19,835 nt of DNA. Origin: a virus (lineage: Duplodnaviria; Heunggongvirae; Uroviricota; Caudoviricetes). This document shows positions 15,001-18,000 of this stretch, piece after piece. Every line of letters begins with the position of its first letter. The first letter of the stretch is position 1. A program made the position numbers. The DNA is taken from the IMG/VR virus record IMGVR_UViG_2534681832_000045; one strand, 5' to 3'.

Positions 15001-18000
15001 ACAAAACCCGCCCACAAGCGGGTTTTGTTGTGCCACTTATCTCGGATAGACATGGTGAATGCGCTGGTGGAGGAGATAAGGGTGATTTTTGTATGCTTGC
15101 AACATTGATTTCGTAACGTTATTATCCTGCGCCCGGCCCTTTAGCTCAGTGGTGAGAGCGAGCGACTCATAATCGCCAGGTCGCTGGTTCAAATCCAGCA
15201 AGGGCCACCAACCGCCACTAGCCATCAGGAAAGAGCGTCAACCCTTTAAGTTGAGTGTGCGAGGTTCGAGTCCCCGGTGGTGGTCCATTATCGGTATTCT
15301 GCGTTGTTAGCTCAGCAGGACAGAGCAATTGCCTTCTAAGCAATCGGTCACTGGTTCGACTCCAGTACAACGCGCTACACTTATTTTCCCGGCTCGCTTT
15401 TGCGGGCCTTTTTTGTATCTGCGCCACGCCCGGCGCATACCAACCACAGAGCCTTTCGGGGGGGGGGGAGCTTACGGAGTGGTCAGTGTGACTTTCTCTG
15501 TGGGCAGATCGCTCCCGGGCGTTGGCTCACCCACCCAAAGGAACGTCACGATGTTTGGTATTTTTGGTAAAAAAAGCCCGCAGAGCGGCAACGGAAATTA
15601 AAAAGTTTGAAAAACGCGATCTGGCACAGGTGGTGATTAACGCCGCCTACCTGGTGGCCTATGCAGATGGTGAATGTGAGGCTTCCTAGAAAGCGAAGAT
15701 CGAACAGGTACTGCGTAATCAGCCTGCGCTGTACGCGTTTACGTCAGAAATTAATGCGATTAGCGCAACCATTATCGGTCAGCTGGATACGAACTTTAAA
15801 ACTGGTCGTCGTGCGGCGTTACGTGAGATCGAGGATGTGAAACACGATACGCGTGAAGCGGAAGATGTGCTGGATGTGGCGGTGGCCATTGCGGAGGCAG
15901 ACGGCGAAATTGAGCCGGAAGAGCGCAAGGTGCTGGAAGAGATTGCCGGTGTTCTGGGTCTTCGTCTGGAGAATTACCTGTGACGGTAAAACTGCGCCTG
16001 ACTGTGGCTGCACTCCTGCTGTTTCTGGTGGTGATGGTGGATTTCACCAGCAGAATCATGTCGGTGCTGGCGGATGGGGTGCTGGTCTGCGGCATTATGG
16101 TATTGCTGTGGCCGGTGATAAAAAGAAACAGCCTGCATAATGCTTGATTTTTTTGTTTGCTGTTTATTAAAAACACTTCTGCATGGTGAATCCCCCTGTG
16201 CGGTGGGGCAATCAGCAAGAAGGAATATGGGGTAATCGCGGATTCAGGTGCTGATACTGAATTCACCGGGAGGCACCCGGCACCATGCTTTGCCACAAAA
16301 GTGTTATTTCTGTTTTTCTCAAACTATCATCGTTATCCCTTTATTTTCGGCTGCGCATGGCGCGGCCTTTTTTTTACGACCAGCCACTGGCAGATGGTCA
16401 TCCTGTGATTTGATTCCGCTTCCGGCTTTTTAACTCTGTTCCTCTACACGGGAGAAATTCGATGTCGATTAAACATTACGATGTTATCAGGGCGGCGTCG
16501 CCGTCAGACCTTGCGGAAAAGCTGACACACAAACTGAAAGAGGGCTGGCAGCCATACGGCGGACCGGTTGCCATTACGCCGTACACACTGATGCAGGCGG
16601 TGGCTATTGAAGGAGAGCCACAGGTCGGCCCTTCATCTGAGCCGGATTGGTACTACGTCATCGTACTGGCCGGGCAGTCCAATGCCATGGCTTACGGTGA
16701 AGGGCTTCCGCTGCCGGATTCATACGATGCTCCGGATCCGCGCATTAAACAGCTGGCGCGCCGCAGTACAGTTACGCCGGGTGGGGCTGCCTGCAGATAT
16801 AACGATATTATTCCGGCTGACCACTGTCTGCATGATGTGCAGGATATGAGTACGCTGAATCATCCGAGGGCTGACCTGAGCAAAGGGCAGTACGGCTGTG
16901 TCGGCCAGGGTTTACATATTGCCAAAAAACTGCTCCCGTATATCCCGAATAACGCGGGGATCCTGCTGGTACCATGCTGTCGTGGTGGTTCGGCATTTAC
17001 CCAGGGCGCGGAGGGGACATTCAGCGAGTCCACGGGGGCCAGTCAGGATTCGGCACGCTGGGGGGTGGGCAAGCCGTTATATCAGGATCTGATTTCCCGC
17101 ACAAAAGCGGCATTGCAGAAAAATCCGAAAAACGTTCTGCTGGCCGTCTGCTGGATGCAGGGAGAGTTTGACATGAGCGCCGCCACCCACGCACAGCAAC
17201 CTGCGCTGTTTACAGCCATGCTGGCACAGTTTCGTGCTGACCTCTCCGTGTTTAACGCGCAGTGCCATGGTGGCAGTGCTGCAGATGTGCCGTGGATTTG
17301 TGGTGACACGACGTATTAACTGGAAAAATACCTACGGCACCCAGTACAACACCATTTACGGGGCGTACAAAAACAGGGAGAGTGAGGGCGTTTATTTTGT
17401 GCCCTTCATGACAGACGGTAACGGCGTCAATACCGCCACTAACGCGCCGGCAGAAGATCCGGATATTCCGGCATCAGGATATTACGGTGCGGCATCGAGA
17501 ACGAATGGAAACCAGGTATCATCAAACCGCCCGACACATTTCAGTTCATGGGCGCGCAGGAGCATTATTCCGGATCGTCTGGCAACCGCTATTCTGAACG
17601 CAGCCGGGCGCACCTCAGCCTTCATCAGTGGTAAGGCACCGGAAATCAAACCCTCGCCCGGCGGCAACACGCCATCGGGTCCGTCTGCAGATACGTCCGT
17701 TCGCACAATCTCCCTGCTGCCGGCAGCCGGAGAGGCTGCTGCGCAGGGCTGGAGCATTAAGGATGGCGGAATTCAGTTGTCAGATGGTGTATTTAAGATC
17801 ACCAAGCAGAGCAATAAAACCTGGTCCCTGACGCATCCGGTGGATGACGCAATTACCCTGCTGACACAGGGCGGCAGACTGACCTGTAAGTTCCGCCTGT
17901 CAGGCGCACTGACCAACAATCAGTTCGGGCTGGGGATTTATCTGTATACGGATGCTCCCGTTCCTGATGGTGTGGCGATGACGGGTACCGGTAATCCGTT

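Follow-up and report, generated by a model that had tools for sequence, protein, structure and literature searches.

A tciA pseudogene with a structured leader and a length-variable poly-G run in a defective lambdoid prophage of Escherichia coli

The tciAB locus and gene identities

The IMG/VR record IMGVR_UViG_2534681832_000045, a stretch of 19,835 nt referred to here in its entirety as the window, represents the late region of a defective and decaying lambdoid prophage of Escherichia coli. On its plus strand lie a pseudogene of the TerB family, tciA (15551-15983), and an intact open reading frame (ORF) for a small membrane protein of 55 amino acids, tciB (15980-16147). The 5' untranslated region of tciA (15416-15553), hereafter the leader, is structured and conserved, and carries an uninterrupted run of eleven G residues (G11, 15458-15468) in the 5' arm of its long helix. 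This study concerns the lesions of tciA, the origin of the G-run and the possible function of the leader.

The identity of tciA was established with a repaired translation of 143 amino acids, on which all profile and structure matches were computed. The repaired protein matched Pfam TerB (PF05099; E = 1.3e-14, 54.9 bits against a cut-off of 24.4), PHROG 632 'tellurite resistance' (E = 1.2e-68, covering residues 1-143 of 143) and the TerB structure PDB 2JXU (E = 5.7e-7). The locus thus matches the TerB and PHROG 632 profiles while lacking an intact, protein-producing ORF. The tciB ORF matched Pfam DUF3927 (PF13064; E = 1.7e-16) and PHROG 1470 'TciB-like' (E = 1.8e-29), and it is a hydrophobic ORF within the usual length of about 50-55 amino acids whose start overlaps the stop of tciA. 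Searches of phage genomes with tblastn recovered full-length homologues annotated as tciA and tciB, with TciA identities of 97% in Escherichia phage JLK-2012, 94-95% in phages PPyecE_EH1910 and Evi, 65-75% in Salmonella and Erwinia jumbo phages and 51% in P1 and P7.

Two inherited lesions in tciA

The native ATG of tciA lies at 15551-15553, 82 nt from the G-run. The frame opened by this ATG reads MFGIFGKKSPQSGNGN and stops at TAA 15599-15601. If one A is removed from the A7 run at 15569-15575, the ATG frame joins the TerB-like frame, whose sole remaining break is the TAG at 15687-15689 and which ends at TGA 15981-15983. The G11 at 15458-15468, the A7 run and the in-frame TAG, all noted in a sequence-only reading of the window, were reproduced by direct reading and by script.

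Three intact alleles (JLK-2012, Evi and PPyecE_EH1910) code for a TciA of 143 amino acids with the N-terminus MFGIFGKK and align with the window from residue 1. Alignment of the nucleotide sequences revealed that they carry GGT AAA AAA GCC (A6) or AAG AAA ACC where the window has A7, so that the frame of the window is shifted after codon 8; codon 46 of the intact protein is GAG in these alleles and TAG in the window. The frameshift was recognized by comparison with intact homologues and is absent from the annotation made by the Prokaryotic Genome Annotation Pipeline (PGAP), which, on the same sequence in identical genomes, places the start at TTG 15555, flags an 'internal stop' alone and calls a pseudogene. 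In related loci the intact protein has 141-143 amino acids and always begins at the same ATG with MFG..KK. Since residues F2, G3, K7 and K8 are invariant from P1 to the lambdoid and other enterobacterial phages, the ATG, and not the TTG chosen by PGAP, is taken as the native start.

At least 16 independent complete genomes, among them two separate assemblies of strain 97-3250, share a 1081-base stretch of the window with 100% identity, which shows the lesions to be inherited and rules out a local assembly error. The sequence-only reading had proposed a true pseudogene with two lesions, and both the intact orthologues (A6, GAG) and the identical genomes agree with it. As far as sequence comparison can tell, tciA is a true, inherited pseudogene and both of its lesions are real.

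All four combinations of A6 or A7 with GAG or TAG occur, a mixture that points to recombination among prophages or to recurrent slippage in the A-run. The O157:H7 TerB-family protein WP_001303509.1 (loci L130, L131 and L133) derives from an allele with A7 and GAG, from which PGAP calls an intact product of 142 amino acids starting at TTG. Relative to the conserved ATG this allele carries the same A7 frameshift, and the protein annotated as intact is thus probably defective too.

These O157:H7 genomes lend some support to an account with a single lesion, according to which translation begins at TTG 15555 and the A7 causes no frameshift, or the A7 is bypassed by transcriptional or ribosomal slippage, and alleles devoid of the TAG still make protein. 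The body of the ORF is indeed open in the A7/GAG genomes, and A-runs can support low-level slippage. Nevertheless, all intact homologues from lambdoid phages to P1 begin at the ATG with MFG..(K)KK, the Shine-Dalgarno sequence (SD) is positioned for that ATG, and ribosomes initiating there would terminate after 16 codons, across the start of the TTG frame. A bypass of the A7 would need a +1 shift to restore the frame, and the A-run is out of register for a classical -1 heptamer. In the window the TAG kills the frame regardless, and we hold this account to be quite unlikely. Suppression of the amber codon by the adjacent phage tRNAs was also considered and rejected: their anticodons are CAT, TTT and TCT, and none is CUA.

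tciB and its coupling to tciA

The GTG start of tciB (15980-15982) overlaps the TGA of tciA as GTGA (15980-15983), and a GGAG motif lies 8 nt upstream of this GTG. The translational coupling to a membrane ORF that had been suggested from the window alone is consistent with the architecture of the whole family: at distant tciA loci a small hydrophobic ORF follows in 57 of 63 cases, and in 52 it overlaps or abuts the tciA stop. The tciB ORF is intact in all loci of the pseudogene lineage that were examined; as this lineage is too young, intactness is no proof of selection. A homologue of tciC after tciB was rejected, as the ORF of 31 amino acids at 16140-16235 has no evident resemblance to P1 TciC and overlaps a small RNA (sRNA) of the STnc100 family.

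At the Pseudomonas homologues of tciA (L155-L193) the same overlapping start is found, with DUF3927 replaced by another small-protein family of about 65 amino acids (motif CSYYGFQTDRETRYAAFVGCMV). Judging from these ORFs, the partner of tciA has been swapped there and the coupling architecture kept.

Origin and length variation of the G-run

The G11 is the sole G or C run of at least nine bases in the window, where it gives three overlapping 9-mer matches against 0.14 expected from shuffled sequences. A scan of viral contigs with the 16-mer located just 5' of the run matched 120 stretches, and the majority state of the loci derived from them is GGGGGTGAGC or AGGGGTGAGC, that is (G/A)GGGGTGAGC. 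A G7 form equals the majority sequence with one T-to-G change; G6, G11 and G12 were found as well. With GGGGGTG as the ancestral form, the G-run of the window is a derived, expanded state.

With an 86-nt query spanning the tract, 772 records of complete E. coli genomes were matched, 20 of them exactly. Among 60 evenly spaced records of the 772, match lengths ran from 81 to 91, which corresponds to tracts of 6 to 16 bases, and in eight loci that were fetched the differences in length were confirmed to lie in the tract. The O26/O111-type loci, differing from the window by 0-2 substituted bases over about 2.5 kb, carried G8, G13, G14, G15 and G16, while O157:H7 loci carried G9, G10 and G11. The G11 had been suspected of being prone to slippage, and the lengths found between genomes (G8 and G11 to G16 in O26/O111-type, G9 to G11 in O157:H7) accord with that suspicion. 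As in a contingency locus, the homopolymer is long enough to slip and polymorphic in length among close relatives; by the genome comparisons the tract is genuine and, from strain to strain, hypervariable.

Long-read platforms are prone to errors in long homopolymers, and both the G11 and the A7 might in principle be sequencing or assembly errors at a locus whose G-run is shorter and whose frame is intact. A private 1-base deletion in the A8 run of the antiterminator gene Q of the window hints at possible homopolymer miscalls in this very assembly. Against such an origin, the A7, the TAG and a G-run of at least six bases are common to dozens of independent assemblies and viral contigs, from isolates and metagenomes; the exact G11 recurs in the 20 records, including both assemblies of 97-3250; the TAG is a substitution and not a homopolymer error; and a spread from 8 to 16 far exceeds miscalling by plus or minus 1. 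An artefact is accordingly the least probable of the explanations considered here, and we find it very hard to credit.

Of the A7 alleles, almost all have an uninterrupted G-run; among the intact alleles the T is mostly retained. A promoter scan of the plus strand between 15125 and 15550 found no sigma-70-like promoter around the run, and a role of the run as a phase-variable promoter spacer was rejected, as no -35 and -10 hexamers flank it.

A conserved structured leader

The leader comprises a small hairpin (15420-15437), an anti-SD CCTTT (15452-15456), the G-run, an inner hairpin, the 3' arm GGCTCACCCACCC (15524-15536), the SD AAAGGAA (15537-15543) and the ATG. The approximately 135 nt between terminator and ATG are conserved wherever this clade of tciA occurs, including Pantoea, Buttiauxella, Franconibacter, Citrobacter and a Salmonella jumbo phage; the leader is not present in P1 or in the Pseudomonas homologues of tciA.

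A consensus fold was obtained with RNAalifold from 22 distinct variants. It consists of the small 5' hairpin and a long hairpin at whose base CCUUU (15452-15456) pairs with the AAAGG of the SD (15537-15541). Above this base the G-run and UGAGC pair with GCUCACCC(A)CC (15524-15536), followed by the inner helix; in the ancestral leader it is GGGGGUGAGC that pairs with GCUCACCC(A)CC just 5' of the ribosome-binding site. In this fold 97.2% of the cells are paired, compared with 35-48% for slid partners; compensatory changes occur at four pairs, and none of 500 shuffles scored as high for covariation. As the outer helix is mostly invariant, the covariation supports the modelled fold moderately. In Pantoea communis GGGGUGAGUCAG pairs with CUGACUCACCCC in a compensatory manner, and in the Salmonella jumbo phage the outer helix is preserved through compensatory changes around a wholly different inner helix. 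The 22 variants also served to build a covariance model, which found a single copy in the window, with 133 bits, the ancestral type scoring about 152 bits. These pairings suggest that the leader may control translation by sequestering the SD.

No match in Rfam 15 with an E of 5 or less covers 15416-15553, at gathering or permissive thresholds, and the neighbouring matches are tRNAs and STnc100 only. The leader was also considered as a Pas sRNA and rejected: PasA and PasC lie between the esterase and holin genes, PasD/STnc100 lies upstream of the esterase gene, and none lies upstream of TerB. Divergent copies of the leader architecture precede unrelated genes in two viral contigs, L089 (12364-12482, plus strand) and L024 (5775-5889, minus strand); both keep the small hairpin, GTCTTTCAG, GTGAGCC...GGCTCAC and, before the ATG, CTAAAAGGAAA. 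A truncated 5' half of the leader precedes other cargo in L024, L032, L089 and L097. Such arrangements would suggest a portable leader or an element of module boundaries.

An alternative fold and the predicted effect of tract length

In a second fold, mutually exclusive with the consensus, CUCCCGG(G) is the partner of the G-run and the SD stays free. Folded as a single sequence, the ancestral leader has this structure as its minimum-energy fold; across the variants 93% of its cells are paired, without significant covariation. In the homologue from Pantoea communis the outer helix of the second fold is disrupted, and the consensus fold is compensated. For these two reasons the second fold was set aside as the main structure and kept as a possible second state.

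Partition-function folding of the leader of the window with different tracts, in which the 5' end is arbitrary and the values depend on the energy parameters, predicted a probability of anti-SD pairing of 0.03-0.09 for the ancestral G5UG and for G6 to G8, 0.43 for G9, 0.61 for G10 and 0.88-0.97 for G11 to G16. The run might accordingly be imagined as a contingency element, the length of which balances the SD-exposing and SD-sequestering folds, slippage thereby switching the translation of tciA and tciB. The position of the run in the 5' arm of a helix based on the CCUUU:AAAGG pairing would fit such a role, as would the maintenance of both folds in the 22 variants (97% and 93% of cells paired, slid controls about 45%), the predicted climb of anti-SD pairing from 0.04 in the ancestral and G6 to G8 forms to about 0.9 or more from G11 onwards, the range of tract lengths from 6 to 16 across strains, and an independent expansion in the lineage of phage Evi and contig L091, in which tciA is intact.

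On the other hand, tciA is already inactive in the window and in most of the expanded alleles, so that little would be left to regulate. The second helix of the consensus is mostly invariant, the covariation is modest for the consensus and not significant for the alternative fold, and it is the alternative fold that fails in Pantoea communis. The effect on folding is moreover a thermodynamic prediction for one sequence with an arbitrary 5' end, and E. coli is, to our knowledge, not among the species that use homopolymer contingency loci. We therefore consider regulation by tract length unlikely. The broader proposal, in which the tciA leader is a two-state translational switch and the poly-G, having arisen at least twice in its 5' arm, a slippage-driven rheostat in prophages of enterohaemorrhagic E. 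coli (EHEC), is equally doubtful.

Prophage context of the module

The late-region genes in the window are arranged in the order RusA, Q, a pR'-like promoter with a tR'-like hairpin, tRNA-like genes, a terminator, the tciA leader, tciA, tciB, an STnc100-family sRNA, a nanS-p esterase gene, and holin and lysozyme genes. The Q antiterminator occupies 14250-14939, the pR'-like promoter and tR'-like hairpin about 14923-15029, and three tRNA-like genes with anticodons CAT, TTT and TCT 15135-15375. The terminator scan identified an intrinsic terminator on the plus strand at 15391-15416 (GGCTCGC-TTTT-GCGGGCC and a T-run), which closes the tRNA cluster of the prophage and forms the upstream edge of the tciAB module; related loci likewise have this hairpin ahead of the leader. 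Downstream of tciB, an sRNA of the STnc100 family (RF02076 in Rfam, 100.8 bits) was found on the plus strand at 16152-16324, followed by a terminator-like hairpin at 16349-16375 and a nanS-p type SASA esterase gene from 16462. The slot of this match, between tciB and the esterase gene, is that described for PasD/STnc100-family prophage sRNAs, a family already reported (bioRxiv 10.64898/2026.05.13.724894). In the window tciAB lies between the Q/tRNA cluster and the nanS-p esterase gene, a position taken by stx in Shiga toxin (Stx) phages.

In genomes identical at this locus, neighbouring frameshifted genes and an IS600 indicate that the prophage is decaying. The Q gene of the window is split into ORFs of 54 and 177 amino acids (14245-14939), with A7 at about 14382-14388 as opposed to A8 in eight compared genomes. 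The A7 form of Q was found in just 12 of 995 E. coli records and is absent from those genomes of the collection that have the G11 allele at the tciA locus; either the defective prophage has one more private lesion here or the assembly has miscalled the homopolymer. The middle tRNA-like gene (15212-15287, plus strand) was called Lys(ttt) by ARAGORN, falls below the Rfam tRNA threshold and is left unannotated by PGAP in identical genomes. At its place in O157:H7 prophages stands a proper tRNA-Arg; the gene of the window looks like a degenerate tRNA. A DicF sRNA (4537-4588, minus strand, 76.7 bits) and a sok antitoxin RNA adjoining hokD (11703-11852, plus strand, 103.9 bits) are ordinary cargo of cryptic lambdoid prophages. 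Membership of the region in a defence system was rejected, the best PADLOC match being non-significant (E = 0.009).

Discussion

The reading that best accounts for these results is that the region is a tciA-tciB accessory ('moron') module of a defective lambdoid prophage, in which neutral slippage has acted on the leader of a dead gene, the G11 being a mutational by-product and not a designed element. We assign to this reading, taken jointly, a probability of about 0.7. Under it, a single U-to-G change would have fused G5 and G1 into a G7 long enough for replication slippage, and the run would then have drifted between 6 and 16 across strains, mostly in the lineage with the A7 frameshift, which implies that selection on the leader is probably relaxed. 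The slip from A6 to A7 in the A-run of tciA itself shifts the frame and the change from GAG to TAG removes the remainder, so that the native start can yield a peptide of 16 amino acids and nothing more. tciB is still open but deprived of the upstream translation to which it was coupled. The tract would thus drift in length because little or nothing downstream of it is under selection.

Several observations weigh against this neutral account. Runs of G10 or more are predicted to shift the leader to the SD-sequestered fold, which, in a living gene, would have a functional consequence. The spread of lengths between assemblies could partly be homopolymer miscalling of plus or minus 1, and the association of the A7 with the G-run may reflect shared descent only. 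An independent G11 is present in another leader lineage (phage Evi and contig L091) together with an intact tciA of 143 amino acids, and G7 and AG6 also occur with intact tciA; expansion is hence seen with living genes too, and could be tolerated or might even be favoured by selection.

The outcome mostly clarifies annotation. The gene pair and the pseudogene status were already in the RefSeq annotation; what is added is that the genes are tciA and tciB and that the TTG start of PGAP hides a frameshift, in WP_001303509.1 as well. No relevant description of a poly-G tract in EHEC prophages, of the tciA leader or of the function of DUF3927 was found in the searchable literature. The tract is one of few long and demonstrably hypervariable G-runs of E. 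coli (6 to 16 bases in complete genomes); it can cause noise in assembly or in the calling of single-nucleotide polymorphisms during EHEC typing, and could serve as a fast-evolving marker. In addition, a conserved structured leader that had not been described travels with tciA in lambdoid and jumbo phages. Were this leader a translational switch, it would constitute a small new cis-regulatory RNA; were the run a phase-variable rheostat, EHEC prophages would gain an accessory gene subject to phase variation, which is not an established strategy in E. coli.

Comparison with known systems

The closest known counterpart is tciA/tciB of phage P1, in which, as in the window, a TerB-domain protein of about 143 amino acids is followed by an overlapping DUF3927 membrane protein of about 55 amino acids, in a late-region position adjoining phage tRNAs. 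In contrast to P1, the window has a tciA pseudogene, broken by a frameshift and an amber codon, and no homologue of tciC, whereas P1 lacks the conserved leader. The P1 genes are non-essential and their name was guessed from homology (PMC10695390).

TerB of the terZABCDE tellurite-resistance and Ter stress-response system shares the domain of TciA, with two ADGE...E acidic motifs. Unlike the ter operon, the window has no terC, terD, terZ or similar neighbours of tciA, the partner being a DUF3927 peptide, and TciA is not known to confer tellurite resistance.

The leader resembles SD-sequestering leaders such as the lambda cIII mRNA and RNA thermometers in that an upstream CCUUU is predicted to pair with the AAAGG of the ribosome-binding site and a competing fold would free the SD. 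In comparison with these, the fold of the tciA leader is a prediction with modest covariation and has no match in Rfam.

The poly-G and poly-C contingency loci of Neisseria, Haemophilus and Campylobacter share with the window a run above the slippage threshold, just upstream of a gene and polymorphic in length in close strains. They differ in that the run of the window lies in a helix of the 5' untranslated region and not in a promoter spacer or an ORF, and in that the downstream gene is dead; homopolymer contingency loci are not, as far as we know, an established strategy of E. coli. Slippage-prone homopolymers are a familiar phenomenon and such tracts are rare in E. coli. Set beside these systems, the tract is a new example of that phenomenon, the locus as a whole being largely a case of ordinary decay apart from one mildly unusual feature.

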